Origin: Gammaproteobacteria bacterium
GTDB lineage: Bacteria; Pseudomonadota; Gammaproteobacteria; CBDBNL01; JAAOII01
Assembly: GCA_965209035.1 (NCBI GenBank)
Contig: OZ242372.1
Span: 1,504,001 to 1,568,000 of the forward strand
DNA: 64,000 nt
Direction of reading: 5' to 3'
Within the stretch, counting starts at the first letter, position 1. Every line of letters starts with the position of its first letter. The translations under genes were made by a program, and so were the position numbers. Of this stretch, positions 24,471-61,470 are shown one piece after another. Below the pieces are notes generated by a model. The model searched no databases. It worked only from the letters and a program-made list of their open reading frames with translations, and was not told where the DNA came from.

Positions 24471-25361
24471 ATGACAGATTGGATTCAAACAACTCTGCTC
24501 GCCTTCGTCCAGGGGGTGACCGAGTTTCTGCCGGTTTCCAGTTCGGCACATTTGGCACTGCCCGCCATACTCTCGCCGGCGATTATCCAACGCAGTCTGT
24601 TATTTGACGCCGCCTTGCACGGCGGAACACTGGCGGCGGCACTCGTATTTTTTCGGTCGGATCTGGTGCGATTATTTGTATCTTGTTTTTGGCAAACACG
24701 CGGCGGTACAAATGTCGCGGTAGCCGCGGCCCGGGAAGACAGATACTTTGTGGCAATGCTCGCGCTTGCGGCCCTGCCGGTGCTGGCGGCGGGATACCTC
24801 TTGGCGGATGTTGTTTCTTTGCTGCATCGCCTTCCCGTTATTGCCGGCACGACCTTCGTCTTTGGTTTGTTTCTTTGGCATGCGGTGCGGGTGTCACAGA
24901 AGCGGGCAAAAAGCAAAGGTTCGGTCGCCGAGATCTCATGCGAAAAGATCACTTGGGATCTTGCACTTTGTATAGGAGTGGGACAAGTTCTCGCTTTGGT
25001 GCCGGGTGTTTCGCGTTCCGGCATCACCATCACGGTCGGACTTTGGCTTGGCATGTCACAACGAGAGGCTGCCCGGTTTTCTTTTCTTCTTGCCGTTCCG
25101 GTCATTTTTGCCGCATCCGCTTACAGTTTTTGGCAATTGTTCACCGGTGATTCATCGCTCGTCTCTTCGGCGGATGCATCGGATGCATGGCGTCACGCTT
25201 TGTTCGGCGCATTGGTTGCGTTTGTTTTTGCCTATCTGACGATGGAATTCTTTTTCCGGCTGCTTGACCGCGTCGGCATGATGCCCTTTGTCGCTTATCG
25301 CCTGTTTCTCGGCGGCATCCTATTGTTATACTGGCTGTTTTTCCAAGGGGGGGCTTTTTAA
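24471..25361 (+). CDS. uppP: Undecaprenyl-diphosphate phosphatase
   Basis: VQGVTEFLPVSSSAH, PGVSRSGIT, AARFSFLL, FVAYR. Confidence 0.95.
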   Translation: MTDWIQTTLLAFVQGVTEFLPVSSSAHLALPAILSPAIIQRSLLFDAALHGGTLAAALVFFRSDLVRLFVSCFWQTRGGTNVAVAAAREDRYFVAMLALAALPVLAAGYLLADVVSLLHRLPVIAGTTFVFGLFLWHAVRVSQKRAKSKGSVAEISCEKITWDLALCIGVGQVLALVPGVSRSGITITVGLWLGMSQREAARFSFLLAVPVIFAASAYSFWQLFTGDSSLVSSADASDAWRHALFGALVAFVFAYLTMEFFFRLLDRVGMMPFVAYRLFLGGILLLYWLFFQGGAF

Positions 25362-26050
25362 CGGGGGCATGCATGAAAGTTGTTTTATATTCGCACCGAG
25401 TATCATCATTGCAATAAGCATTCGGCAGTATTAATTTTTTTGGTAAAAGGCAATATTTCCGTTCAAACAGTCCTATAATTAACCTTGTTACCAGCTTTGA
25501 ATCTAACAGACAGGTGCTTGTCTGTAGTGAAAAGCCCAGCCCCCGACATTTCATGAATGTCGGGGGTGTCTTTTTAAGGGGGGCATGCATGAAAGTTGTT
25601 TTATATTCGCACCGAGTATCATCATTGCAACAAGCATTCGGCAGTATTAATTTTTTTGGTAAAAGGCAATATTTCCGTTCAAACAGTCCTATAATTAACC
25701 TTGTTACCAGCTTTGAATCTAACAGACAGGTGCTTGTCTGTAGCGAAAAGCCCAACCCCCGACATTTCATGAATGTCGGGGGTGTCTTTTTAAGGGGGGC
25801 ATGCATTAAAGTTGTTTTATATTCGCACCGAGTATCATCATTGCAACAAGCATTCGGCAGTATTAATTTTTTTTGGTAAAAGGCAATATTTCCGTTCAAA
25901 CAGTCCTATAATTAACTTTGTTACTAGCTTTGACCCGACAGACATGTTTATATGTGTCCGTTTGATAGTGAGAGGCATCGCCCCCCGACATTTCATGAAT
26001 GGCGGGGGTGCTTCTTTAATGAAGATATGCAAGTCGTTTTATATTCACAT
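25353..26050 (+). repeat. 216-bp tandem repeat (3 copies plus degenerate start of a 4th) beginning at the uppP stop
   Basis: AAAGTTGTTTTATATTCGCACCGAG at 25376, 25592, 25808; degenerate at ~26031. Confidence 0.95.
25540..25575 (+). terminator. Intrinsic terminator-like hairpin closing each 216-bp unit
   Basis: CCCCCGACATT-TCATG-AATGTCGGGGG then TGTCTTTTT; repeated at ~25756 and ~25982. Confidence 0.65.
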
Positions 26051-32794: not shown

Positions 32795-33174
32795 ATAAAG
32801 ATTATTAGTTATTCATTAAAGGATAACTGCTTTTGCTTTTCTTCTTAAAGAGAATCTTTGAGAACTGCGGCTTTACCGAAGAAAACATCCGCCGCAAAAT
32901 CCACCAACTGCTGCGTCCTTTAAAGGTTGTTAAGGGATAACTGTTTTTGCTTTTATTCTTAAAGAGAATCTTTGAGAACCGCGGCTTTACCGCAGAAAAC
33001 ATCCGTCACAAAATCCGCCAACTGCTGCGTCCTTTAAAGGTTGTTAAGGGATAACCGCTTTTCCCTTTCTTCTTAAAGAGAATCTTTGAGAACTGCGGCT
33101 TCACCGCAGAAAACACCCGCCGCAAAATCCGCCAACTGCTGCGTCCTTAAATAAAGGTTATTAGTTATTCATTA
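32740..33174 (+). repeat. Four copies (gene plus three) of the tkt 3' end, spacing 128/114/114 bp
   Basis: GGCTTYACCG..AAAACA..AAAATCCRCCAACTGCTGCGTCCTT at 32741, 32869, 32983, 33097. Confidence 0.95.
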
Positions 33175-36736: not shown

Positions 36737-39550
36737 TTGATACAGTTTTTTACAGAGTTTGTTCCGGATCCGCTCTTTTTGTTTGTGGCGGCCGGCTTTG
36801 AGGGGGTGGTGCTGGCGATATTCGTGCCGGTGAGCCTGGAGATTATTTCAAAAACATCGGCAAAGTATAACTCGGATGTCGTTGTTCGCCTTTACAGACA
36901 GAGCCTCGTCCATCGAGCATTCCCTTTTCTTCTGCTCATGAGCATCTGCGGTATGTTGGTGATGCGCTTTTTTATGACCGAAGAATTGGGCGCGTCTCTC
37001 GGCGGCAGAATCATCATGTGGTCATTAATGTCTGTCACCGTCTGCATCATCTTTCTGCTCGGTTATCTCATTTATCGTATGGATCAATTTATTAGCAAAG
37101 ACACTGTCCCGTTGAACATGCTATTTAAGGATTTGAAACGATTTATGAAAATCAAAAACCCCGCCAAGGCGCGGCGTTTGTTGATAGAAACTATGAGCGG
37201 CATCGGCGACATCCTGACTTATCAGACCAGACGACAGAACAATCTTGCTCTTCTTGAAGAACTGCCAAAAATTTGGGGGACGATAGAGAAACTGTTGGAA
37301 CTGAAAAAGAAAGATGAGAAACAATTTTTCAATCTGGTGTATGACCCTGAATTCGCCGAATATTTGAATAAGCAACCGACTGCCAGGGAGCGGGCGTACT
37401 TTTGTTTTACCAGCCCCGACAAACATCTGGCGGGTTTTGCGGTGCCGGTTAATCAGTTGATCCGCATTTATAAGGTGGCGCTTGAAACCTCCAATACCGA
37501 GGTGGCGCGCAAATCTTTGGATTATTTGCATCTGATTTTGCAATCCTGCGTGACCGAAGATGGCAACGAATTTCTTGTGGAATGGATGCTTAAACGCATT
37601 AACGAATGCGTCAACCTGGGCATGCGTGCCGGCGAAGAGGCGGAGCGTCTTTCGTTGACCTGGTATCGGGACATCCTTTTTAGAGAGCCACACACAGGCA
37701 AAGGCGCGTTTCGCTTGGACTATTTGGAATTGTGTGAAAGTTACTTTGCAAAAATGCTGGCCGCGCTTGCCGCAATGGTTGCCCAAGGCTACGAGACATA
37801 TTATCGTAAACTCGCGGATGGCATGGCACGGGATTTTATTTTTCCAAACTATCAGCGCGGCAAACTTTGGGGCTATCATGACTTGTTGCGGCTTTCGGAC
37901 TACAAAGCCTATAAGGAAATCAACTTGAAGTACAGATTGCAATACAAAATTAGAAAACTCCTGCTATCCGAACATATGGTTCAGACCGAGGAAGATCTGA
38001 AATCCTGGGAGAACGACTTCCGGGAAATAAAGAAGATCATTGTGCCCGGCTTGCGGGACGAGTACAAGTCGGAGGCCACCGGATTGGAAAAGGCGATACT
38101 TTCTTATGTGACCGCCTATATGAAATACAAAAGACTGATGCGACTGTTTTACGCACTCGGCACCTATTGTGATCTGCGCGAGAGATACGACCTGATGTCC
38201 TATTTGTGGGAGGCGGGACAAACAGGCGAAGGCACTTACAGAATTCTGCCGCCGAGCCCGCAGGTTCTTATCAATGACTATTTGACTTATCCGGGTGTGT
38301 TGAATAAAAACTACTTTGGCGAATCCTATCAGGTGATGAGTGTGTATCGCAAAAGATACTATGTGCTTCTTCTGGCGCGGCTACTGGCGGATCAGGTGGC
38401 GCCCGATTACAGATTGCCGCCGCTCAGCCTGAATCAACTGCGTGACTTTCCGGCACTGATGGACGAATTGCTGGAGATCACCGGTCAACTCAAGGATGAG
38501 GCGCCGCAGCGTCTCCGGTTGCTTTGGCGATTGGCATTTGGCGGCTACCGGGATCCGGCGGAGTGGGCAAAAAAAGTCACCGATTATCTGCTGCTGGTAA
38601 AAAAGATTGCTGAAAAACAATTGACCATCAAGCAAAAAACGACTGAAATCAGCGTTAAACGCAAGGACGAGTTTCGGGTTGCGGTGATGCGAGGATTTAA
38701 AGACCAGTCTATTTTGCGAGAGCTCTTTCGTCAGTACACAAAGACATACGAAGATCGCACAAAAACGGCCGCCAAGAACGCGCCGAAGGAAAGTTTTGGT
38801 ATCCGCGAACTGACGAACAAGGATATTTTTTTCCAACCGAGCCAACTTATTTCCTCCGCCTGGAGTTACGGTAAGAACCTGGCGGACTCCGAAAACTTGT
38901 TCCTGTTTGGTCGTATTCAGAGTGAGTGCAAGCGCGCTTCTTTGCGAGGATTTGAACAGACACTGAAAAAAGCGGGCGCGCCGGCAGATGTCTTTATACT
39001 GGGCACGGTATTTACTCTGGAGAATTTCTTCGGCGGGGCGGAAAACTTCCGCCCCGCCGATCGGACAAGTTTGGAAACGGATGCCAAACGCAATCCCGTT
39101 GCCGCGGAGATTAAGAGTATCCCCGGCTATGCCGGCTCTTATTACTTGGACGAGCATGCTTTTCCCGTGTTCGTGTTTCAGCATCGAGGCAGTGCCAATC
39201 AGTTCTTGATTCTCAATCGTACGCGTTTGGGTAAGATGATGCAGTTTCCCGTCGCACCGGACGGGGCTCGGCATAAGCATACCAAACTGCTGGAAAACAT
39301 TTTTCATTTTGATGTTCGCAGTTTGTCCAAGGACCGCAAACTTCTAAAAAAATATACGGAAGCCCAATCCGCGGAATGGTTGCGGCAGCAGGGGGACAAG
39401 CCGGCACAAAAAGAGTATCTGCTTAAAAGAGCCCTGGTCATTTTTCAACAGAATCCGGGCTTTCACAAGGCAAAGGATTTCGTGGGCTTTAAGATGCTTG
39501 TCAAGCGTATGGAGGCATTTGAAGATTCCCCGCCCGGATTTTCCGTATGA
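36737..39550 (+). CDS. Large hypothetical protein, ~3 N-terminal TM helices plus ~820-aa soluble helical region
   Basis: 937-aa open frame; hydrophobic N-terminus; no motif recognised. Confidence 0.75.
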   Translation: MIQFFTEFVPDPLFLFVAAGFEGVVLAIFVPVSLEIISKTSAKYNSDVVVRLYRQSLVHRAFPFLLLMSICGMLVMRFFMTEELGASLGGRIIMWSLMSVTVCIIFLLGYLIYRMDQFISKDTVPLNMLFKDLKRFMKIKNPAKARRLLIETMSGIGDILTYQTRRQNNLALLEELPKIWGTIEKLLELKKKDEKQFFNLVYDPEFAEYLNKQPTARERAYFCFTSPDKHLAGFAVPVNQLIRIYKVALETSNTEVARKSLDYLHLILQSCVTEDGNEFLVEWMLKRINECVNLGMRAGEEAERLSLTWYRDILFREPHTGKGAFRLDYLELCESYFAKMLAALAAMVAQGYETYYRKLADGMARDFIFPNYQRGKLWGYHDLLRLSDYKAYKEINLKYRLQYKIRKLLLSEHMVQTEEDLKSWENDFREIKKIIVPGLRDEYKSEATGLEKAILSYVTAYMKYKRLMRLFYALGTYCDLRERYDLMSYLWEAGQTGEGTYRILPPSPQVLINDYLTYPGVLNKNYFGESYQVMSVYRKRYYVLLLARLLADQVAPDYRLPPLSLNQLRDFPALMDELLEITGQLKDEAPQRLRLLWRLAFGGYRDPAEWAKKVTDYLLLVKKIAEKQLTIKQKTTEISVKRKDEFRVAVMRGFKDQSILRELFRQYTKTYEDRTKTAAKNAPKESFGIRELTNKDIFFQPSQLISSAWSYGKNLADSENLFLFGRIQSECKRASLRGFEQTLKKAGAPADVFILGTVFTLENFFGGAENFRPADRTSLETDAKRNPVAAEIKSIPGYAGSYYLDEHAFPVFVFQHRGSANQFLILNRTRLGKMMQFPVAPDGARHKHTKLLENIFHFDVRSLSKDRKLLKKYTEAQSAEWLRQQGDKPAQKEYLLKRALVIFQQNPGFHKAKDFVGFKMLVKRMEAFEDSPPGFSV

Positions 39551-39723
39551 CGATATGACAACTTCGGCTGGCAGATTCCCTGTCCGGATTCTCCGTATGA
39601 CGATATGACAACTTCGGCTGGCAGATTCCCTGTCCGGATTTTCCGTATGACGATATGACAACTTCGGCTGGCAGATTCCCTGTCCGGATTCTCCGTATGA
39701 CGATATGACAACTTCGGCTGGCA
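39523..39723 (+). repeat. 50-bp tandem repeat x4 spanning the upstream stop and the pepP start
   Basis: YTCCGTATGACGATATGACAACTTCGGCTGGCA at 39541, 39591, 39641, 39691 with alternating T/C. Confidence 0.97.
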
Positions 39724-41033
39724 CGGGCCGACAGCCGGCTGATGTTTTTGCCCGGCGCCGAAAACATATTCTTAGGGGGATGCCGCGCGAATCCGCGCTG
39801 TTGCTTCTCGGTGTGACCGCCGAACAGACCGGCGATGCGCCCGTGCGACAGAACAGCGACTTTTATTATTTGAGCGGGTTTAATCAGACGGATGCGACTC
39901 TGCTACTCGTCAAACCCCAAAAAGGAAAAAGCGTTGAGATCCTTTTTTGTCGGCAGCCAAGCACGGCGGATATTCTTTGGCGAGGACGGTATCTTGCGCC
40001 GACAGAGGCGGCGCATCTGCATCGGTTTTCGATAGGCTATCCGATTTCCGAGTTGCGACAACATCTGCGGCGGGTATCGGCGGGCTGCTTTTACTATCCG
40101 ATTGGTCGGGATTCCAAAACCGACGAATGGGTCACCGACATGGCAAAGAATGCGGTCGACGGTCCCAAATGTCTGATGGACAGCGGCCAACTGCTGGATC
40201 CCATGCGGCTAATAAAAGACCGCACGGAAATATTACTGATTAAAGAAGCATCCCGCATTTCCATGGCAGCCCATCGCAGGGTGGCGGATAACCGCAACAA
40301 CTATTCGGCGGAATACGAAGCCGAAGCGGATTTGCTACACACCTATCGGCGGATGAACGCTCGGGTGGCATTTCATCCGATTGTGGCGGGCGGGGCGAAT
40401 GCCTGCGTTCTCCACTATATGCAAAACGATCGTCCTTATGACAAAAAACAGGTGTTGTTGGTTGACAGCGGGGCGGAATACGGACGCTATTGCTCGGACA
40501 TTACCAGAACCTATGTTCCGTCCCCACCCCCGTCCCAGCACATCAAAAATCTTGGGGGCAGCATCGAGGACAACATCGAAGACAACCCCGGGGACAACCC
40601 CGTCGGAGCGATTCATCGAGCGGTTCTCCGTGCCCTGCGGGCCGCTTGCGCTGCCGCAAAAATCGGAGCAACGCTCGAGCGAGTGCATCTGAGCGCGGTC
40701 AAGTGTCTCATTGCCGAGTTGGGGTCTTTGGGAATTATTAAGGACACACCCGCCGTGGCTCTTGCCAAAGGCACATACAAACGATACTTCCCGCATCGGA
40801 CTTCTCATTGGATCGGTCTGGATGTTCACGATGTCGGCGCCCGACAAGCATTGAGACCCGGGATGGTGTTTAGTGTTGAGCCGGGTCTTTACTTTGCCCC
40901 GGATGACGAGACGGTCGCCCCCAAGTGGCGCGGTATGGGTGTGCGGCTGGAAGATACTGTCCTGATGACCGACAAGGGCGCGGAAAACTTGACGGCGGAA
41001 CTTCCTTACGGCGGCGACAGGCAGCCAAGGTGA
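39705..41033 (+). CDS. pepP: Xaa-Pro aminopeptidase
   Basis: RQNSDFYYLSG, ACVLHY, DSGAE..YCSDITRT, HWIGLDVHD, VEPGLY, GVRLED. Confidence 0.93.
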   Translation: MTTSAGTGRQPADVFARRRKHILRGMPRESALLLLGVTAEQTGDAPVRQNSDFYYLSGFNQTDATLLLVKPQKGKSVEILFCRQPSTADILWRGRYLAPTEAAHLHRFSIGYPISELRQHLRRVSAGCFYYPIGRDSKTDEWVTDMAKNAVDGPKCLMDSGQLLDPMRLIKDRTEILLIKEASRISMAAHRRVADNRNNYSAEYEAEADLLHTYRRMNARVAFHPIVAGGANACVLHYMQNDRPYDKKQVLLVDSGAEYGRYCSDITRTYVPSPPPSQHIKNLGGSIEDNIEDNPGDNPVGAIHRAVLRALRAACAAAKIGATLERVHLSAVKCLIAELGSLGIIKDTPAVALAKGTYKRYFPHRTSHWIGLDVHDVGARQALRPGMVFSVEPGLYFAPDDETVAPKWRGMGVRLEDTVLMTDKGAENLTAELPYGGDRQPR

Positions 41034-41099
41034 AAGCGATGCCGTCTAGCCCGACTGGTTCGTCTAGCCCACATAGCCCACATAGCCCACATAGCCCAT

Positions 41100-42422
41100 A
41101 TGACGCCCGCAATCACGAACACCGCGAACACCATGATCACACATGATCACCACGAATACAAGGAGAAGCAAGTTTACGATATTTTAATTGCCGGCGGCGG
41201 TCTGACGGGGGCCGCAGCCTACTGTGCTTTGGCGACGGTTGTGCGAGAACAAAAACTCACGATGGCACTTTGTGAAAGGCATTCCGTCCATGCCAACGCC
41301 GCCGCACAGGATCAGAGAGTGCTGGCGTTGGGCCGCGGGGCGGTCAGTATCCTGCAAGAATGGGGGCTGTGGGAGCAGATCCGCGCATACGCGCACCCGG
41401 TTTCTTCAATGGCATTTTTCTTGGCAGACAGGACCACAGTCATTGACGCCCGCCAACTGGGTTGGGATGCCTGGGGCTGGACCATCCCGCATTCCCGGAT
41501 GATGCAAGTTTTAATGGAGCGGGTTGCCGCACTTGCCAAAGAAGACAACCGCTTGGATCTGTGCGCTCCTTTTTGCATAGAAGATTTTCAACTGACCGCC
41601 AACGGGATGCGGCTGACGGATAAGAAACGGCACAGTGCGCTCGCGGCACGCCTGGTGCTTTCGGCCGAAGGAGCCAAGGGTGTGCTTTCCGCGGGCATGC
41701 AAGTCAAGAGGACATTTTTACGCGAAGAATATCCGTCCGATGCCGCCGCAAAGACAGCCGTTTCGGCGGGCGTATCAGCCAAGGGCGTTTCTCCGAACAG
41801 CGGCTACTGGTTTTGGAATACGGACGGCGGCGGTGGTGTTCTTGCTCTCATCCCTTATAAAAATGCAGAGAACGAGGTTGCCCGAACATCGGTTTTTTTA
41901 CCCCCCTGGCAAAAAAAAGAGCAAGAGCAAGAGCAAGAGAAAGAGAAAGAGAAAGTGCAAACGAAACCGGATGATTATTTAAAGCATCTTACCCGTTTCA
42001 GTCGCGGGATGATTGATGACCTCACGAGCGAACCCGGTACATTTTTAATAGAATCTTATAAAACCGAAGAACGATTAAAAGGACCTCTTTTGTTGCTGGG
42101 AGACGCCGCCCATCGGATGACCCCCCTGGGCGGACAAGGTTATAATCTCACACTTTGGACTCTGGAAAAACTAAGACAGGCATTTGAACAACGCCCCGTC
42201 ACCGGGGAAAAAGAATTTCCGGCAAACCGCTCTTTCTTATTGGATTACATTATTCAAACCCAGCCGACCATAGACCGACGGTATGATCTCGTCCGGTTGG
42301 CGGCGGACGGTTTGGCGGATCGCCGCGCCGCTGTTGAAAAACTGACCCGGCTATTTTCCGGTCTGCCTTCGGTTGCCGCTGTCTGCTTGGACTTTGCAGT
42401 CGGGTTGGATGCCGACCTTTAA
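41100..42422 (+). CDS. UbiH/UbiI-like FAD-dependent hydroxylase
   Basis: IAGGGLTG, SAEGA, LLGDAAH..PLGGQGYNL; pepP-ubiH synteny. Confidence 0.8.
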   Translation: MTPAITNTANTMITHDHHEYKEKQVYDILIAGGGLTGAAAYCALATVVREQKLTMALCERHSVHANAAAQDQRVLALGRGAVSILQEWGLWEQIRAYAHPVSSMAFFLADRTTVIDARQLGWDAWGWTIPHSRMMQVLMERVAALAKEDNRLDLCAPFCIEDFQLTANGMRLTDKKRHSALAARLVLSAEGAKGVLSAGMQVKRTFLREEYPSDAAAKTAVSAGVSAKGVSPNSGYWFWNTDGGGGVLALIPYKNAENEVARTSVFLPPWQKKEQEQEQEKEKEKVQTKPDDYLKHLTRFSRGMIDDLTSEPGTFLIESYKTEERLKGPLLLLGDAAHRMTPLGGQGYNLTLWTLEKLRQAFEQRPVTGEKEFPANRSFLLDYIIQTQPTIDRRYDLVRLAADGLADRRAAVEKLTRLFSGLPSVAAVCLDFAVGLDADL

Positions 42423-42870
42423 TGGCTCTTTTTTGTCGGACTACATTATTCAAATTCAAGCCCAGCCGGCTATAGGCAGACCGGAGACCGCCGGTATGCT
42501 CTTGTCCGGTTGGCTGCGGACGGTTTGGCGGGTCGCCGCGCCGCTGTTGAAAAACTGACCCGACTATTTTCCGGTCTGCCTTCGGTTGCCGCTGTCTGCT
42601 TGGGCGGTTGGGCTGGGCGGTTGGGCTGGATGCCGACCTTTAATCGTTCTTTTTTATCGGACTACATTATTCAAATTCAAACCCAGCCGGCTATAGGCAG
42701 ACCGGAGACCGACGGTATGCTCTTGTCCGGTTGGCAGCGGACGGTTTGGCGGGCCGCCGCGCCGCTGTTGAAAAACTGACCCGACTATTTTCCGGTCTGC
42801 CTTCGGTTGCCGCTGTTTGTTTGGACTTTGCGGTTGGGATGGGCGGTTGGGCTGGATGCCGACCTTTAAT
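42229..42870 (+). repeat. Three copies (gene plus two) of the last ~195 bp of the ubiH-like gene
   Basis: GAYTACATTATTCAAA...GCCGCTGTTGAAAAACTGACCCG...GGATGCCGACCTTTAAT ending 42423, 42644, 42870. Confidence 0.95.
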
Positions 42871-42939
42871 GGCGGCCGGAATTTTTTCTTCTCTTATATA
42901 AACTATAAACAGGCAGTATAACCAGCCCTTTGGCTGTTA

Positions 42940-43695
42940 TTAGCGGACTGTAATACCCGCCGAACGCATATGCTCTTTTGCTTCGCCGATAGAATAATGC
43001 CCAAAATGAAACATCCCCGCCGCCAGGACGGCATCCGCCTTGCCTTGTAATATCCCTTCCGCCAGATGTTGCGGGGTGCCCGCACCGCCGGAGGCGATCA
43101 CCGGCACCGGCACCGCCTCGCTGACGGCACGCACCAACGGGATATTAAAACCGCCCGATGTGCCGTCGCTATCCATGCAGGTTAGCAGAATTTCGCCCGC
43201 GCCCAGATCGCAAAGACGGCGCGCCCATTCGATGGCATCCAACCCGGTCGGCTTTCTGCCGCCGTGGGTGAAGACCTCCCATTTGCCCGTGCCGACCTGT
43301 TTGGCATCTATGGCGGCGACGATGCATTGGGTGCCGAAACTTTGCGCGGCCGCGCGCACAAACTCCGGGTTCGCCACGGCGGCGGTGTTGATGCTGACCT
43401 TGTCGGCGCCGACGCGCAGCAGGGCGCGAATGTCTGCCAGTTCGGAGATGCCGCCGCCCACCAGCAACGGAATGAATACTTGGGTGGCAATTCTGTCTAT
43501 GAGATCTACGGTCGTTTTACGGCCTTCGTGGCTGGCGGAAATGTCCAGAACAGCCAACTCGTCCGCATTCTGTTCGCCGTAGCGGGCGGCAACTTCCGCG
43601 GGGTCGCCGGCATCGCGCAGGTTTTGAAAACGCACCCCCTTGCGGACACGCCCGCAATCCACATCCAGGCAGGGGATTAATCGGCTTGCCAGCAT
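42940..43695 (-). CDS. hisF: Imidazole glycerol phosphate synthase cyclase
   Basis: [34 protein letters not shown]. Confidence 0.97.
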
Positions 43696-47821: not shown

Positions 47822-49636
47822 TCAGTAAATCACTTTCACGGTTTCTCTATTTAATCCTAATAAGTTTAGCCATTTTTCAAGATTGATATCCGCGTAGCCA
47901 TCAATATAAATGCGATGGTTTGCAAACTCCTTCAGTGAAGATTTACATTGACCCAGTACAAAATAAGAATTACCTACTTTGTATAGTAAGTCCTCTTCTA
48001 TTTCTTTTATTGATTCTGTAAGTAGCACTTCTCCAGATGCTGCCATCATGTTATAAAGAGTATCCGCTGGTGTAAAGCGGTTAATTTGTAACTTTAATGA
48101 TCCAGTATCTGCCTCTTGTAATTGAGGACGATCAATTAAGGAAAATACTTTATAATCGGTATCTAAATCTTCTGCCAACATACCGGCCTCCTTCAAAATT
48201 TTATGTCCCGCCCTTCTGACACGCTCTATACAAATAGAAGATATAAAAGGATCTAGTTTATTTGATATACAAAAATCGTGTGCCTCTTTGTTCTTTTGAG
48301 GGTCAATTTTTTCATCCGACTGCACCAAAATAAATTTACGGTTTCCTCCGTCTTCTTTGTTCTGTTTCATTACAGCATGGGCAGTTGTTCCACTGCCTGC
48401 GAAGAAGTCTAATATAAAAAAATCTTTGTCAGGAGTTGCTTTTATGAATTTTTTAATTAAGTCAACAGGTTTAGGAAAGTCCATGACCTTAATATTATCA
48501 AACAGTTTCTTTAACTTGTTGGTGGCAGTTTCTGTTTGATACGGTCCTAAGTGTGATGTTATAGGCAGATATGGATTTTGATACTCATGGGGATATTTTT
48601 TCTGTCTTGGTGTTCCTGACTTATCTTTTGGGAAAATAATTCGTTTTTCTTTGATCATCTTTTCTATACGTGATCTTGAAAGTGCCCATTTTTTATGAAA
48701 CTTATTACCAGTATCAGGATCAGTAATTGTAAATTCGGATCTCGTAGGTACTGTAGACTTCATATTATCCGCTTTCCAAGGGCCTTGGGGATCATTATCC
48801 GGATTTGAGAACCCGGTAAGGCCTCTGTCCTTTCCTACGAAATACGTGTTATTGTTTTTTGCATAGCACAAAATATACTCATGATTCGCAACAACACCAG
48901 TTTTTGGTGGAACGCCTTTGGGAGCAGTTTTGGTCACCCAAGTGAATGTTGTAATAAAATTGGGTTCTCCAAAAATTTCAGAACACATTAATTTTAAATT
49001 TGCCATTTCCTTATCATCTATAGAAATAAGAATAACCCCGTTATCTGTTAATAGCTCTCTTGCTAACTTTAATCTTGGGTACATTGCAAACATCCAGCCT
49101 GAGTGATTAAGAGAACCGAACATATTCTCAAAAAAATCTTGTGCCTCTGGGTCTATATCGTAATCTTCGATTAGCTGCTTTTCATTCACTTTAAAACTAT
49201 CTTTATAAATGAAATTGGCATTTTCGGTATTGTATGGAGGATCAATGTAGATCATCTGAATCTTGTTTGTATAATTTTGCCGCAATATTTTTAAGACATC
49301 CAGGTTATCACCGCGAATAATAGTATTTTTAGTTTTATCGAAGTTGCTTGATAGCTTTCGCTCTATTCTCAACTCTTTATTCGTAGAAATATCTGCTTGG
49401 GCATTTGCCAGACCCTTACCGGCAAAGTTCAATAAATATCCTTGTTTGGAAGATATAAGATTGTCTTGGCCTAAAAAGTCTTTTAATGCATCGACATCTA
49501 ATTTGTCATCTCCGTTAACCAACCCGGGAAGAATTTGACGAATCTGTTTGAGTTTGGTAACCTTATCATCGACAATAGTTTCTGAAGAATCTATGACCCC
49601 GTAACCGGCTTTTTTTGTACTTTTTTTATCTAACAT
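47822..49636 (-). CDS. Type III restriction-modification methyltransferase (Mod)
   Basis: GDNLDVL, YIDPPYN, FPKPV, LDFFAGSGTT, RKFILVQ. Confidence 0.93.
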   Translation of the reverse strand: MLDKKSTKKAGYGVIDSSETIVDDKVTKLKQIRQILPGLVNGDDKLDVDALKDFLGQDNLISSKQGYLLNFAGKGLANAQADISTNKELRIERKLSSNFDKTKNTIIRGDNLDVLKILRQNYTNKIQMIYIDPPYNTENANFIYKDSFKVNEKQLIEDYDIDPEAQDFFENMFGSLNHSGWMFAMYPRLKLARELLTDNGVILISIDDKEMANLKLMCSEIFGEPNFITTFTWVTKTAPKGVPPKTGVVANHEYILCYAKNNNTYFVGKDRGLTGFSNPDNDPQGPWKADNMKSTVPTRSEFTITDPDTGNKFHKKWALSRSRIEKMIKEKRIIFPKDKSGTPRQKKYPHEYQNPYLPITSHLGPYQTETATNKLKKLFDNIKVMDFPKPVDLIKKFIKATPDKDFFILDFFAGSGTTAHAVMKQNKEDGGNRKFILVQSDEKIDPQKNKEAHDFCISNKLDPFISSICIERVRRAGHKILKEAGMLAEDLDTDYKVFSLIDRPQLQEADTGSLKLQINRFTPADTLYNMMAASGEVLLTESIKEIEEDLLYKVGNSYFVLGQCKSSLKEFANHRIYIDGYADINLEKWLNLLGLNRETVKVIY

Positions 49637-52512
49637 CCATTAATATTTTTTAATAATTGAGTTAGTTCTTCTTTGTTAATTCTTTTCTTGAATACCACTT
49701 CAACTGAATCATTTTGTTGGTTCACAGCCTCAAAAAATTTTGTGGCATACTCAATCTTTCTTTGCTCTTCATCTGGTATCCTGCTTTGACGATCGTATCC
49801 TTTGGTTTCGACAATTAAAAATAATTTCTTGCCCGAATCGCATCGAATATAATATGCAAAATCGGGACTATAAGATTTATAAGGTGTCGGGATGCTTATT
49901 TTTGGCAACTTTGCAAATACTACAATTTTTTTATTACCAATTTTCAGTGGCTCTGTCTTGGCAACTTCTTTTTCTATACTAGAATCATAGACGATCTTAT
50001 CATAAAGATAATTTTCTGCCGGATATTCGGTTTGCTGAGTTACGTATCTGCCAATTTGATGTGCATCTATTTTCTTTTTGCAAATTTTGTATTCTTCATC
50101 TTGATAAAAGATGTTTCTTGCGTTTATGAAAACTTCATTCTCAAAAGCATAACTAATGCTCTGAACAACTACCTTATGAATTTCATCCTTGAAAATTGTT
50201 GTTAACAACTGTTGTGCTCGGGTCGGGTCTTTTTTTATTTTTTCTTCGGATAACATATTAAACATTTCACAACAAAATCGTATTGGTAGATTTTCTCTTT
50301 TGGCAAAGTTACCAATAAAATTTTTGTAACTACTTCTTGTAAAAAAACGGGCATACCCGGTTGGGTTTTCTTCTACGGTTTCAAATCTATTTTTATTATG
50401 ATTATAGACGTGTCGCTTTATTTTCTTTTCCACAGGATGAACATCTTCTCTTTCAAAAGAGCTTCTAACCGAACGAATTAAAGATTTTTCATCAATATTG
50501 TGATACCGAATACGTGCTTTGCGAGTAATGGTTTCCCACAAACTTTCAAATTCTTTAAATTTTTCTTGTCTTATACCAACTTGATTTACTATTCTATTGG
50601 CATTTATTACAGGGAGGTCAACTGCTCTTTTAAATTTTTGTATCAAAACTTCATACATTTCTTTGCCAAAGAGTTTTTGCAAACGTTCTCCTTGTTCTTG
50701 TAAAAAGTCATAGATTGAATCGTTAATCTTCCATATTCCGTCTGCATTGCTGATAGGAGAAATAACATTGGCATCTTCTAAATAGACTATCAAACGACCT
50801 ATGTGAGATTCAGTTAATCCAATTGCTTTCAACATATTCCGGGTTAACTTTTGGTAGGTAATACTATTCCCAACAATCTCATTTTGTATTTCTTCCACAA
50901 AATTTTCTTCTTGACCGGACACAATGATATCTAACATATTGATGTTGTAAAAATTACTTTCATTATTTTCGCAATATCCAATAGTTTGTCGTTTACCTTC
51001 TTGATCGACTGCCAATCGTAATCCTCTGCCCACCTGTTGGCGGCGTGATGTTTCTTGATCGGTTGATGCCAGTTTACATATCGTAAAGATGTTAGGGTTA
51101 TCCCATCCTTCTTGTAAGGCCCAAACTGAAAAAATGAATCTTAAGGGTTCTTTCGTAGATAATAGTTTTTCCTTTTCATTCAAAATTAGATCAACTCCTT
51201 CGGATTCTTTTGTCTCTCTTGAACCCTTGTCACCTGAAAAATATCCTTCGTGAACTCGTAATTGATTATTATCGTTATAGTCTTTTTGTAAATAGTCACG
51301 ATAGGTAGAACTTAATTTTTTCTTTAAAACAACTTTTCTCTGTCTCTTATATTCTTCTTCAAAAATATTTTTGATGCGCGGATTCCCTCCTCTATAATCG
51401 GATATGTTTGGGATGAAAAAAAGAGACAGCGTTTTTATACCTTTCTTAAATAAAATTTCCTCTTTGTTGAAATGAATTTCTATGGCTTGTTTTACCATAG
51501 TATGAATAGACAAGTCATTTAATTGATAATCGTTGGAGCTTAAAGAACGCTTTGTTCCGTTACTTAAAAATACTTCTCTTTTTTTCAAGCGAACAACATG
51601 GAAATCGTGCTCTTTTTTACCTGTGAACACCTCTATATTCTCTTTGCATCTTATATCTCTTACAAATTCTTCACCATCTTTAAAAAAATGAATACAAAGT
51701 GTATTGGGGTTTTTCCCCTTGTAAAATTTAATGCCGGTTTCTCTGTCTATTATTGTGGACACCTTGATTTTTTTTACCAGATAGTCACGAAATGCAGTGA
51801 TGCTATCTAACATATAAACAACATTTGATAACTTGAAATCATTATCAGTAGGGAAAGTTGCCCCAAATCTCAAACACAAAGACTTGGAAAAATAACACTC
51901 ATAAGTATTAACGAAACTGGCTCCTTTTAACAAATGTGGTTCGTCAATAAAAATTACCGGACTGAGTTCACCAATTGCAGATAACGGTGATTTTTGTTCA
52001 TAAAGTAAACTCTCATTTCTACGCCTAAGTTTTCTATCCGCTTCATTGTTTCCTGTTATAGAAGCACTTGTTAATATTAAGACTGAAAATTCTTGTTTAT
52101 TACGGATATAATCCAATACCTGATTTAATCCACTCTTATCACCATAAATGTGCTTTTTGATGCGTACATGGTATTCATGAAAAAAGTAATCGGATGTTAA
52201 ATCAATGTTTTGAAGGATGCAACTCTTAATAGCAAGGCGTGGAACAAAAACAACAAACTTATTGATGCCGTAATTTTTATTCATTTCATACATAGTTTTT
52301 AGGTAAGTAAAGGTTTTACCTGTTCCTGTTTCCATTAGAACATCTAATCGAGATTTTGTACTTAAATGGCTTTCTGGAATATTTTCTTTTTGTTGTAATT
52401 CTTTGATGCTTTCTTTAAGAGATGAAAAATCTCTCAAATTATCCGTAGATTCAAGGATTTTCATAATATTGTTTACACAATCCTCTTGGTATTTTTGCTT
52501 TTCAAATAACAT
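49630..52512 (-). CDS. Type III restriction endonuclease (Res)
   Basis: METGTGKT, IDEPH, QEGWDNPN, QQVGRGLRL, C-terminal PDF...IVETK. Confidence 0.93.
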   Translation of the reverse strand: MLFEKQKYQEDCVNNIMKILESTDNLRDFSSLKESIKELQQKENIPESHLSTKSRLDVLMETGTGKTFTYLKTMYEMNKNYGINKFVVFVPRLAIKSCILQNIDLTSDYFFHEYHVRIKKHIYGDKSGLNQVLDYIRNKQEFSVLILTSASITGNNEADRKLRRRNESLLYEQKSPLSAIGELSPVIFIDEPHLLKGASFVNTYECYFSKSLCLRFGATFPTDNDFKLSNVVYMLDSITAFRDYLVKKIKVSTIIDRETGIKFYKGKNPNTLCIHFFKDGEEFVRDIRCKENIEVFTGKKEHDFHVVRLKKREVFLSNGTKRSLSSNDYQLNDLSIHTMVKQAIEIHFNKEEILFKKGIKTLSLFFIPNISDYRGGNPRIKNIFEEEYKRQRKVVLKKKLSSTYRDYLQKDYNDNNQLRVHEGYFSGDKGSRETKESEGVDLILNEKEKLLSTKEPLRFIFSVWALQEGWDNPNIFTICKLASTDQETSRRQQVGRGLRLAVDQEGKRQTIGYCENNESNFYNINMLDIIVSGQEENFVEEIQNEIVGNSITYQKLTRNMLKAIGLTESHIGRLIVYLEDANVISPISNADGIWKINDSIYDFLQEQGERLQKLFGKEMYEVLIQKFKRAVDLPVINANRIVNQVGIRQEKFKEFESLWETITRKARIRYHNIDEKSLIRSVRSSFEREDVHPVEKKIKRHVYNHNKNRFETVEENPTGYARFFTRSSYKNFIGNFAKRENLPIRFCCEMFNMLSEEKIKKDPTRAQQLLTTIFKDEIHKVVVQSISYAFENEVFINARNIFYQDEEYKICKKKIDAHQIGRYVTQQTEYPAENYLYDKIVYDSSIEKEVAKTEPLKIGNKKIVVFAKLPKISIPTPYKSYSPDFAYYIRCDSGKKLFLIVETKGYDRQSRIPDEEQRKIEYATKFFEAVNQQNDSVEVVFKKRINKEELTQLLKNINGC

Positions 52513-52535
52513 TGTTTTCTATTTTATAGTGCGCG

Positions 52536-52762
52536 AATTCAAACCACTAACGCAACACCTTTTGTTATATTGTATCCCTTGCCGCCAATTAATAAACCCG
52601 GAAAATCTTTTTGATTCCCGGTTGGCAAAAATTCCCGGCAAGGTTATGCCGGCACAAACTGAAGAATCTTCAAAAGATTCGGCATCTCATTAATTTCACG
52701 GGAATGCTCTCTAACGACTTTGCACGCAAATACAAAACATACCCGGCAGGGTGGGTTCATAT
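52536..52762 (+). repeat. Composite repeat A+B; A recurs at 54135-54299 and B at 55523-55611
   Basis: AATTCAAACCACTAACG...TTTTTGATTCCCGGTTGGCAAAAA...GCCGGCACAAACTGAAGAATCTTCAAAAGATTC occurs twice; CGGCATCTCATTAATTTCACGGG...GGCAGGGTGRGTTCATA occurs twice. Confidence 0.9.
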
Positions 52763-52955
52763 TAAAAGTATCCCGGCGTTCAAAACCAAACTCGTTGACC
52801 GGCCGGTTTGGTATAATTTCGAAAGTTCCCATCATGAGGCTCACAAACAACTCTCGTCGATCCAATTCGGACAACAACAGAAAAATACAAAACCGGTTGG
52901 GATGATACACAGAGATATTAAAACAATTTGAGACCTCTGTTAAGAAGCATATCAA

Positions 52956-54149
52956 ATGAAAAACATCCGGGTAGAAATTAAAGGTCAGGTCTTTACACCG
53001 GCAGAAATTGTGTTGCGTATGATTTCTTTAAGAAAGAACAAAGGCAATGTCCTGGAACCGAGTGCGGGAGACGGCGCTTTTTCAAGACATTTTAAGAAGG
53101 ATGTTGTAGTGTCTGTTGAAAAAGAGAAGGCGGTCATTAAAGATAAGGGAACATTAAATATGGACTTTTTTGATTTCCCAACAAAAGAAAAGTTTGATAC
53201 TATTATCGGGAATCCTCCGTATGTCAAACACAATAATATTGAAGGTGACACCTTGCGGAAATTGGATTATACTTTTTTTGACAAAAGAACCAACTTGTAT
53301 TTATTTTTCATTGAAAAATGCTTAAGACATTTGAGAAAAAAAGGGGAAATGATTTTGATTGTTCCAAGAGAATTTATTAACTTAACAAGCGCTAAAAAAT
53401 TGAATGAATTATTATGTGCAAAAGGAACAATCACCGATTATATCGACCTGGGGGATCAAAAAATATTCGCCGACGCATGTCCCAATGTGGCAATTTTTAG
53501 ATTTCAAAAAGATTGTTTTGACAGGAAAACAAACAGGAGTCTCACTTTTAATTGTATCAACGGCAAGATTTTATTTACAGGCTGCGAGAACAAGATGACT
53601 CTGGGCGAACTCTTTGATGTGAAGGTTGGGGCGGTGAGCGGTGCGGATAGTATTTTTACCGATGATAGCGGTAACGCTTCTTTTGTTTGTTCATATACGG
53701 CAAAAACCGGGAAAACCAAGAGAATGTTTTTTAATGTTAAGCATAGAAAACTTTCCTCCCACAAAGAAGCATTACTCAAAAGAAAAATTAAGAAGTTTGA
53801 TGAGAAAAACTGGTATATGTGGGGCAGAAATCATTTTATTTCCAATGAACCGAGAATATATGTAAATTGCAAGACACGCAATAAAACTCCTTTTTTTACA
53901 CACAGATCCGAATACTATGACGGCTCGGTTCTGGCTTTGTTCCCCAAAAGAGAGATGAACATAAAGAGATATATTGATATCCTTAATAAGGTTGATTGGG
54001 AAAAACAAGGGTTTGTTTGTAATGGCAGATATCTGTTTACACAAAGAAGTTTGACAAATGCTCTTATAAAAAGATCGCATGTGGGACCTGATGCCGGATT
54101 GTTCACGCAAAGAAGCTTAACAAATACTCTGTTCAATTCAAACCACTAA
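52956..54149 (+). CDS. N6-adenine DNA methyltransferase (gamma class)
   Basis: GQVFTP, LEPSAGDG, IIGNPPYV; from memory resembles H. pylori HP0910-type MTases (unverified). Confidence 0.9.
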   Translation: MKNIRVEIKGQVFTPAEIVLRMISLRKNKGNVLEPSAGDGAFSRHFKKDVVVSVEKEKAVIKDKGTLNMDFFDFPTKEKFDTIIGNPPYVKHNNIEGDTLRKLDYTFFDKRTNLYLFFIEKCLRHLRKKGEMILIVPREFINLTSAKKLNELLCAKGTITDYIDLGDQKIFADACPNVAIFRFQKDCFDRKTNRSLTFNCINGKILFTGCENKMTLGELFDVKVGAVSGADSIFTDDSGNASFVCSYTAKTGKTKRMFFNVKHRKLSSHKEALLKRKIKKFDEKNWYMWGRNHFISNEPRIYVNCKTRNKTPFFTHRSEYYDGSVLALFPKREMNIKRYIDILNKVDWEKQGFVCNGRYLFTQRSLTNALIKRSHVGPDAGLFTQRSLTNTLFNSNH

Positions 54150-59960: not shown

Positions 59961-61470
59961 AAAAGTAGCGAATCACCGGCAGCCGTAAGCCCCGGCTCTT
60001 ATGGCATCCCGCCGGGCCGGGCTGAAGAAGCTCCTATCCACTTTCACTGACCGCCACAGGTTGCCCGGCTCCTTAGATTGTCCCTCATCTTAAAAAAGTA
60101 GCGAATCACCGGCAGCTGTAACCTCGACTCTTAGGTTATCCGTTGTTCGTTTCCCGGCCGGGGTTTGGTCTCGTCCGTTTTTTCCCTCACTTTATAAGAA
60201 GTAGCGAATCACCGGCAGCCGTAAGCCCCGGCTCTTAGGTTGTTCGTTTCCCGGCCGGGATTTGGTCTTGCACCACCGAGTTTGCCGCGGCCGCCGGTCA
60301 AGTCGTTAGTCGTTTTGGTCCCAGGCTGAACACGACCGAATGCCAAGAATTAATATCTCAATTTTTTCCCTCATCTTAAAGAAGTAGTGAATCACCGGCA
60401 GCCGTAACCTCGACTCTTAGGTTATTCGTTGTCCGTTTCCCGGACGGGGTTTGGTCTCGCCCGTTTTTTCCCTCATCTTAAAAAAGAAGTAGCGAATCAC
60501 CGGCCGCCGTAACCTCGACTCTTAGGTTGTTCGTTTCCCGGACGGGATTTGGTCTCGTCCGTTTTTTCCCTCACCTTAAAAAAGTAGCGAATCACCGGCA
60601 GCCGTAACCTCGACTCTTAGGTTGTCCGTTTCCCGTTTCCCGGGCGGGGTTTGGTCTCGTCCGTTTTTTCCCTCATCTTAAAAAAGTAGCGAATCACCGG
60701 CAGCCGTAACCTCGACTCTTAGGTTGCTCGTTGTCTATCTCCCGACCGGGGTTTGGTCTCGTCCGTTTTTTCTCTCATCTTAAAAAAGTAGCGAATCACC
60801 GGCAGCCGTAACCTCGACTCTTAGGTTATCCGTTGTCCGTTTCCCGGCCGGGGTTTGGTCTCGTCCGTTTTTTCCCTCATCTTAAAAAAGTAGCGAATCA
60901 CCGGCAGCCGTAACCTCGACTCTTAGGCTATCCGTTTTCCGTTTCCCGGCCGGGGTTTGGTCTCGTCTGTTTTTTTCCTCACTTTATAAGAAGTCGCGAA
61001 TCACCGGCAGCCGTAACCTCGTCTCTTAGGTTATCCGTTGTCCGTTTCCCGACCGGGGTTTGGTCTCGTCCGTTTTTTCCCTCATCTTAAAAAAGTAGCG
61101 AATCACCGGCAGCCGTAACCTCGACTCTTAGGTTATCCGTTGTCCGTTTCCCGGACGGGGTTTGGTCTTGCACCACCGAGTTTGCCGCGGCCGCCGCCGG
61201 TCAAGTCGTTAGTCGTTTTGGTCCCAGGCTGAACATCACCGAATGCCAAAAATTAATATCTCAATTTTTTCCCTCATCTTAAAAAAGCAGCGAATCACCG
61301 GCAGCCGGCAGCCATAAACCCCCGGCTCTTATGGCATCCCGCCGGGCTGGGTTAGGTTGGGCTGACCCGGGCCGGGCTGAAGAATCTCCTATCCACTTTC
61401 ACTGACCGCCACAGGTTGCCTGGCTCTTAGATTAGATTGCCCGGCTCTTAGATTGACCGTTTCCCGACCG
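59853..61470 (+). repeat. Array of 12 units (~95-103 bp modal) containing the pfkB stop region
   Basis: GAATCACCGGC at 59970, 60103, 60206, 60389, 60494, 60589, 60691, 60793, 60895, 60998, 61100, 61292; two units carry ~105 bp of coding 3' end (60276, 61176). Confidence 0.95.

Follow-up and report, generated by a model that had tools for sequence, protein, structure and literature searches.

At the e14 prophage attachment site of Escherichia coli, a displaced 3' end of icd (icdC), diverged at silent sites, lies downstream of the replacement end, and an integrase-bearing element stands between the two. In silent-cassette systems (pilE/pilS, msp2), the cassettes differ by replacements in the variable regions of a surface antigen. 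Concerted evolution, through unequal crossing-over and gene conversion, leaves head-to-tail units, mosaic sharing of variants, and gain and loss of copies. Here, we analyzed a tandem array at the 3' end of a ubiH-like gene for a putative flavin adenine dinucleotide (FAD)-dependent monooxygenase, within a 64,000-nucleotide (nt) stretch of a gammaproteobacterial genome (G000:C1:1504001-1568000; "the window" hereafter). The genome comprises 2.24 Mb in two contigs with 49% GC. At this locus the gene end is triplicated in tandem, and we consider it probable that the 3' parts of the two downstream copies hold an older or alternative working allele, while the copies themselves are functionless. The locus bears a likeness to the C-terminal displacement of Rhs genes, for which the published account (PMC2935791) describes old ends stacked 3' of the working gene, the former end being displaced by recombination, possibly via circular intermediates. 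The Rhs tips are unrelated, laterally acquired toxin ends, each with its own immunity gene. Many large-period tandem arrays, expanding and contracting in non-coding regions, are described for the small genome of Ehrlichia ruminantium (PMC10710844). That organism is an AT-rich alphaproteobacterium, whereas the present host is a gammaproteobacterium of 49% GC whose coding density is not low (~88% of the genome lies within crude, ORF-based gene calls; ORF, open reading frame). The primary papers on E. ruminantium date from 2005 and 2006, the latter by Frutos and colleagues. Some of its arrays are reported to duplicate gene ends. Among the literature matches listed, none was on point for a partial tandem duplication of a bacterial gene end, which is not a claim that none is in print.

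The ubiH-like gene encodes a 440-amino-acid (aa) protein, P0001, in which PF01494 (FAD_binding_3) was matched over residues 26-351, most of its length (E=3.4e-21, Pfam), and the N-terminal GxGxxG motif occurs as GGGLTG in the translation. P0001 could be aligned over its full length with UbiH-type hydroxylases, the C-terminal 65 aa included; the invariant G435 is present, and identity to proteins named 2-octaprenyl-6-methoxyphenol hydroxylase by their sources is 22-26%. Judged by these sequence features, P0001 is predicted to be a UbiH/UbiF/Coq6-type FAD-dependent monooxygenase and may act as a ubiquinone-ring hydroxylase. A paralogue of P0001 is located at G000:C1:428294-428872. A short slippage repeat, TAGCCCACA x3.8, occupies 41065-41098 and stops 2 nt short of the ATG of the gene. 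The features of the locus are as follows.

39705-41033: pepP, upstream of the ubiH-like gene.
41100..42422, + strand: ubiH-like FAD-dependent monooxygenase gene (440 aa, P0001), from the ORF and the Pfam FAD_binding_3 match.
42231..42426, + strand, 196 nt: unit 1, the resident gene end, with the last 63 codons, the stop TAA at 42420-42422 and then 4 nt, TGGC (alignments and sequence).
42396..42408, + strand: diverged 13-nt sub-repeat, present singly in the resident end; one copy keeps TAA 42420 in frame (sequence, and a 13-nt gap in the alignment of the gene with copy 3).
42427..42647, + strand, 221 nt: unit 2 (copy 2), which has insertions of 6 and 11 nt, a deletion of 5 nt and a pair of identical 13-mers (alignments).
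42601..42629, + strand: 13-nt sub-repeat x2.2 in copy 2, 100% identical (Tandem Repeats Finder, TRF).
42648..42873, + strand, 226 nt: unit 3 (copy 3), with 6-nt and 11-nt insertions as in copy 2 (alignments).
42830..42855, + strand: two 13-nt sub-repeats in copy 3, coding for the ...VGMGG... reading shared with the sister-strain protein P0002 (sequence and alignments).
42940-43695, - strand: hisF, convergent with the ubiH-like gene.

The array was called by TRF at 42272-42870 with a period of 221, 2.7 copies and 91% matches. Alignments and reading of the sequence showed three head-to-tail units, each carrying the 3' coding end of the gene with its TAA context and all sharing one boundary. Only 4 nt (TGGC or TCGT) separate each stop-like TAA from the next unit, and the junction TGGC|TCTTT has only ~2 nt (GC) of microhomology; the duplication that founded the array is too ancient to be reconstructed. 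An ATTCAA duplication of 6 nt and an insertion of 11 nt occur in both copies and together make a net frameshift of 17 nt. The extra 13-mer in the copies shifts the TAA out of frame (in copy 2 it stands at 42641-42643), and the gene-equivalent frame of copy 3 is open over 42707-42901. Both copies lie outside any intact gene and carry disabling changes, namely the 17-nt net insertions, the 5-nt deletion of copy 2 and the 13-mer gains. Because of the common frameshift, the copies as whole units could not, in their present form, have been gene ends.

Between the units, whose spacers are 4 nt, no ORFs other than the unit frames, no cargo, no hairpin and no element were found, and no integrase was seen nearby. 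This sets the locus apart from both displacement systems. The element that separates icd from icdC has no counterpart here, and the immunity gene, prophage or small element found as cargo between successive ends at displacement loci is absent. In contrast to the Rhs tips, the units are ~90% identical versions of one housekeeping gene end with a fixed boundary. Two non-coding roles for the units were considered and rejected. The sole Rfam match was to a microRNA family at E=0.4, far under the threshold, and a terminator role was ruled out by the absence of any terminator-like hairpin on the + strand within 42100-43100.

The array is real and not an assembly artefact. In Logan contigs of runs X1-X3, which come from one sample, the unit 1/2 junction (contig 42361-42563), the unit 2/3 junction (contig 42615-42784) and the passage from copy 3 into the downstream flank were covered with 0 differences. 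As these contigs bridge both junctions and the flank exit, the array is not a product of stitching. The depths equalled those of the flanks, rising to 2-2.3x on stretches common to the units; positions 42815-42840, inside copy 3, lie outside every listed Logan piece, and X1-X3 may be the assembly's own data. That strain variants of a single gene end had been stitched in tandem is therefore exceedingly improbable. A minor strain in the source sample would supply such variants, yet the independent k-mer contigs pass through all three boundaries unchanged, and a unit junction is also bridged by raw reads of another sample (X4, described below). In run X3, a minor variant contig over window positions 41300-41430 had a depth of 6 against 24-29, with 10 differences in 131 nt, four of them shared with X4, so two diverged strains co-occur in the source sample.

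An earlier note, made from the sequence alone, had claimed that the copies differ from the gene largely at synonymous third positions, and the substitutions bore this out. A hand-curated list of securely aligned changes comprised 17 variable sites and 18 changes, after exclusion of two alignment-dependent mismatches adjoining the 11-nt indel and of two junction bases past the stop. Thirteen of the 18 changes fell at third codon positions (P=8.5e-4 against 1/3; P=0.023 against 0.46), and an automatic BLAST-based count that kept some doubtful columns gave 14/22. All seven codon pairs that the note had listed between the gene and copy 2 are present: TTC/TTT at 42236, TTA/TTG at 42239, GAT/GAC at 42245, CGA/CGC at 42278, CTC/CTT at 42290, GCG/GCT at 42302 and CGG/CGA at 42350. 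The four pairs ascribed to copy 3 are also there (GTC/GTT at 42383, TGC/TGT at 42386, GCA/GCG at 42398 and GTC/GTT at 42401), but the last two occur in copy 2 too and are thus not additions of copy 3. The replacements and small duplicative indels were found as described; besides the ATTCAA duplication, the 11-nt insertion and the 13-mer gains, they include L>S at 42241, T>A (once or twice), D>A at 42286 and D>G at 42319.

An excess over 1/3 is, however, a weak yardstick. A third-position share of ~0.46 is expected if the gene lineage adds silent changes only, and one of ~0.39 follows from the gene's own strain-level pattern (X4 against the window in the unique gene body, 4/4/9 at positions 1/2/3). 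Because the gene end is under selection, enrichment between gene and copies would be expected even if the copies were junk. Between the two copies, 6 of the 7 secure differences are at third positions, all silent, and the seventh is at a first position (P=0.0069), or 6/8 when one 13-mer site is added (P=0.020). In addition, copy 2 has the resident C,C at 42383 and 42386 and is copy-3-like on both flanks of those sites.

Sister strains provided the evidence on what the copies contain. A protein search retrieved P0002, the ubiH-like protein of a sister strain (316 aa), which is 93% identical over 322 aligned positions. P0002 shows resident states across the 5' third of the unit (FLLDY, QTQPTID, YDLV, no insertions); beyond it, the copy states appear, with LAG for the resident LAD and the VGMGG end of copy 3. 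The last 47 aa of P0002 match the gene-frame translation of copy 3 at 46/47 positions and the resident end at 43/47. A HisF (P0139) is identical to the window HisF at 248/251 positions, and since the ENA contig of P0139 is, like that of P0002, 13280 nt, the P0002 contig probably includes both the gene end and hisF, and the stop of P0002 is probably real. The second source, X4, consists of raw reads from another sample and study that are 90-95% alike; at 42383, 42386 and 42401 they have T and at 42405 C, a copy state in every case. They also show two private changes and a different sequence after 42846, and some of them span a unit junction. The search for strains whose gene carries the copy alleles, proposed in the earlier note, thus succeeded, with a P0002 whose 3' half is copy-type and copy states at four sites in X4. 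The note's further idea, that the copies were once functional gene ends, fits their 3' parts, given the match to P0002, and fails for the whole copies in their present form, which the common frameshift bars. Hexamer repeats at 41909-41966 in the ubiH-like gene code for EQEQEQEKEKEK; P0002 lacks 8 aa of this stretch, and the X4 reads skip 36 nt of it.

These sources allowed changes to be polarised in part. The nucleotide outgroup search gave 54 pattern matches among genome contigs and 61 among metagenome contigs, with 0 confirmed in either; the nearest of 30 related genomes has 33% protein identity, and three same-family loci (L002-L004) have no array at the corresponding locus. Because no nucleotide outgroup exists in these collections, codon-level polarisation is only partial, drawing on the P0002 protein and the X4 read summary. 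When P0002 serves as outgroup, the two insertions and the replacements L>S, D>A and T>A (one or two events) would fall on the copy lineage, all within the first 56 nt of the unit, and D/G at 42319 and the 13-mer number would have changed on the resident lineage. With X4 as outgroup, 42401 and 42405 appear to have changed on the resident lineage, and the resident C,C at 42383/42386 is common to copy 2 but not copy 3.

Decay of the copies is confined to their beginnings. The replacements on the copy lineage number 3-4 in ~37 first and second positions of the 5' 56 nt and 0 in ~73 of the 3' part (Fisher P=0.036-0.011, for a split made post hoc). In a clock test, first- and second-position changes on the copies made up 3-4 of the 16-17 changes in a pool with all third-position changes, where ~52-54% would be expected had the copies been neutral for as long as the gene lineage (P=0.004-0.016). 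Together, the clock and the decay pattern point to 3' parts that were refreshed by unequal crossing-over or short conversion, to an imported resident end, or to chance in a pre-selected case.

To place this array, we surveyed tandem arrays across the genome. Arrays with a period of at least 40 nt number 179 and cover 86.8 kb, or 3.9% of the 2.24 Mb; ORFs contain 119 of them, among which protein repeats of 84, 102 and 171 nt recur, and the other 60 lie outside ORFs. Twenty-one of these 60 lie between convergent genes, where 6.5 would be expected from spacer counts (chi-square P=1e-8), a comparison that is partly circular as arrays lengthen spacers. Arrays overlap 18 gene 3' ends by at least 30 nt, and others cover gene 5' ends and pure spacers. 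A defect in mismatch repair or recombination was not supported as the cause, for mutS, mutL and recA domains were found in open frames. Within the window, further arrays were observed at 25347-25933 (216 nt x2.7, beginning 15 nt before the stop of a BacA-family gene), at 32816-33148 (114 nt x2.9, directly after transketolase), at 60081-61168 (97/102-nt units x ~10, in a 2-kb spacer before a class A penicillin-binding protein gene) and at 50-347 (belonging to an array of 392 nt x1.9 that covers the 3' end of the - strand gene 458-1534).

For a codon-position test, 16 arrays were collected that cover 45 nt or more at the 3' end of a gene no shorter than 450 nt, and C1:1099973, an in-protein 102-nt repeat split by the gene call, was removed, leaving 15. 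Their 150 substitutions are distributed 36/42/72 over positions 1/2/3. The 72 third-position changes depart from 1/3 (P=1.4e-4) and are compatible with the 0.39-0.46 expected under constraint on the resident genes alone (P=0.015 at 0.39 and 0.34 at 0.46). Heterogeneity among the 15 arrays was not significant (Monte Carlo P=0.145). The two-unit arrays C1:1150381-1150915 and C1:1398473-1398767, also over gene 3' ends, have 8/10 and 5/5 third-position differences, and these two and the ubiH-like array are merely the high end of the distribution. Mosaic site patterns occur in multi-unit arrays, for example C1:134130 and C1:1467125.

Several of these results weigh against the reading that the 3' parts of the copies hold a working allele. 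As 72/150 fits selection on resident genes alone, the genome-wide bias is no general proof of functional copies, and the note's argument that the bias makes the arrays more than neutral slippage is not borne out as a general one. Singleton changes in the non-coding copies of four multi-unit arrays fall 4/6/9 at positions 1/2/3 (by eye; not significant). A general 5'-to-3' decay gradient of the kind expected from unequal crossing-over was sought and rejected, as the 14 remaining arrays show none (Mann-Whitney P=0.73, Fisher odds ratio 0.97). At the ubiH-like array the numbers are small, the array was pre-selected for its pattern, and with correction for 15 arrays only the test against 1/3 stays <0.05. 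Three units are too few for an incompatibility test for recombination. P0002 is known as a protein alone, its sharing of a contig with P0139 is read from the equal 13280 nt, and short-read assembly might have merged an array there into one chimeric unit. The X4 depth is 2-4x with 150-nt reads wholly in the repeat, so any X4 unit could be their source, and the X4 summary leaves two differences unlisted, which leaves 42350 and 42398 without polarity. Finally, most polarisable changes (42401, 42405, 42319 and the 13-mer loss; 42383 and 42386 with copy 2) lie on the resident lineage. The note had named as its refutation synonymous changes that all map to the resident lineage together with copy-versus-copy changes random in position; the former comes close to what was found, and the latter does not, with 6/7 at third positions.

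The same facts could be accounted for by a neutral history, in which, after one or two duplications by slippage or illegitimate joining, the copies decayed neutrally and independently and exchanged nothing, the excess coming only from purifying selection on the resident gene plus chance. The genome-wide share fits the 0.39-0.46 expected, the arrays do not differ significantly, the resident lineage accounts for four to six polarised changes, a frameshift and 3-4 replacements are found in the copies, and the gene evolves fast, as the 4/4/9 pattern in its unique body indicates. This history does not predict the silent differences between copies 2 and 3, the lack of copy-derived replacements in the 3' part, the clock result, or the distribution of states at 42383/42386, where copy 2 goes with the resident end and X4 goes with copy 3 in having T,T. 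All four of these were post hoc in a pre-selected array, and we regard the neutral history as unlikely but well worth keeping in mind.

Another explanation is that a diverged C-terminal end from another strain, arriving as a circularised unit or a transformed fragment, became resident and pushed the old end downstream. A copy-3-type end still works in the sister strain, a minor strain variant is present in the source sample (the X3 contig of depth 6 against 24-29 that shares four variants with X4), and most differences that separate the resident end from the copies are silent. Circular recombination intermediates also belong to the published Rhs model (PMC2935791). Still, the 4-nt spacers hold no cargo, hairpin, element, terminator-like or RNA-family feature, and the boundaries common to all three units and the frameshift common to copies 2 and 3 are what simple tandem duplication predicts. 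The arrays over 5' ends and pure spacers suggest a general duplication habit, and in-place divergence of the resident end is equally possible. We therefore give the imported end only a small chance.

A function of the copies themselves is very improbable. They might serve as a C-terminal cassette reservoir for programmed gene conversion, as translated small ORFs (42510-42779 and 42731-42901) or as a stop-readthrough extension, and some features would suit such roles: both copies have an open gene-equivalent frame in their 3' part, the frame past the gene TAA stays open for 119 codons, to 42779, and the bias towards silent sites extends to the comparison of the two copies. However, the 221-nt period is not a multiple of 3, the frameshift is common to both copies, and no short homologous proteins were found among 5.8 billion proteins with query residues 355-440 (0/36 candidates scored). 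The differences are silent (6/7 between copy 2 and copy 3) rather than diversifying, and the protein is a housekeeping-type FAD monooxygenase, not a variable surface antigen; a cassette-variation system is thus unlikely. No evidence was found that the copies function.

As it lacks the cargo that defines displacement loci, the array is best regarded as an ordinary partial gene duplication in tandem that has undergone concerted evolution. The model of concerted evolution predicts that downstream 3' parts can be spliced into the gene, and the chimeric look of P0002 suggests such splicing, although no exchange was seen directly here. We propose that, in a duplication-prone genome, the last ~196 bp of the gene (63-65 codons, with the coding end, the stop and almost no spacer) were triplicated in tandem. 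Unit 1 alone would belong to the gene, and units 2 and 3 would be dead ends that do nothing by themselves. In their 5' thirds, the common frameshift and the replacements would mark decay, while their 3' two-thirds would keep intact the older or alternative allele that the sister strain still uses. The differences would look mainly synonymous since they accumulated on functional lineages. The resident end would have kept changing under purifying selection, through silent changes, a G to D replacement and the loss of one 13-mer that reset the stop. Segments were probably swapped between the units and the resident end, through unequal crossing-over or short gene conversion; copy 2 has the resident C,C at 42383/42386 amid copy-3-like flanks. 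The array, the way its copies decayed, the third-position excess and the match to the sister strain are observed, and the polarity of the changes, the exchanges and the absence of function are inferred.

A more speculative extension, with little chance of being right, is that the downstream units act as a recombination reservoir whose 3' parts are repeatedly spliced into the resident gene by unequal crossing-over or conversion. The gene-end arrays of the genome would then make up a recombinase-free means of swapping C-termini of ordinary genes among co-occurring strains. Selection on the spliced outcome would then protect the 3' two-thirds of the silent copies and let their 5' parts rot.

Other features of the window were noted beside the array. 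Upstream of the ubiH-like gene, a 50-nt unit x4.0 (96% alike) at 39523-39723 covers both the stop of a 937-aa ORF (36737-39550, upstream of pepP, with no Pfam match) and the pepP ATG (39705), so that the pepP start region is repeated upstream of pepP. A low-GC island at 47822-54149 (33-39% GC against ~50% around) was probably acquired horizontally; its genes encode the type III restriction-modification proteins Mod (47822-49636, - strand) and Res (49630-52512, - strand) and an Eco57I-like methylase (52956-54149, + strand).

The ubiH-like locus shows, cleanly and on a small scale, how an earlier allele of a gene end may be stored when a tandem duplication crosses a stop codon, and it illustrates that comparison with sister strains can show apparent "junk" copies to hold sequence in use elsewhere. 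It also calls for caution, as selection on the gene alone predicts a third-position share of up to ~40-46%, and an excess by itself is no sign of copy function. The host genome, whose 2.24 Mb contain 179 large-period arrays alongside intact mutS, mutL and recA, is well suited to the study of what drives tandem duplication in small genomes.

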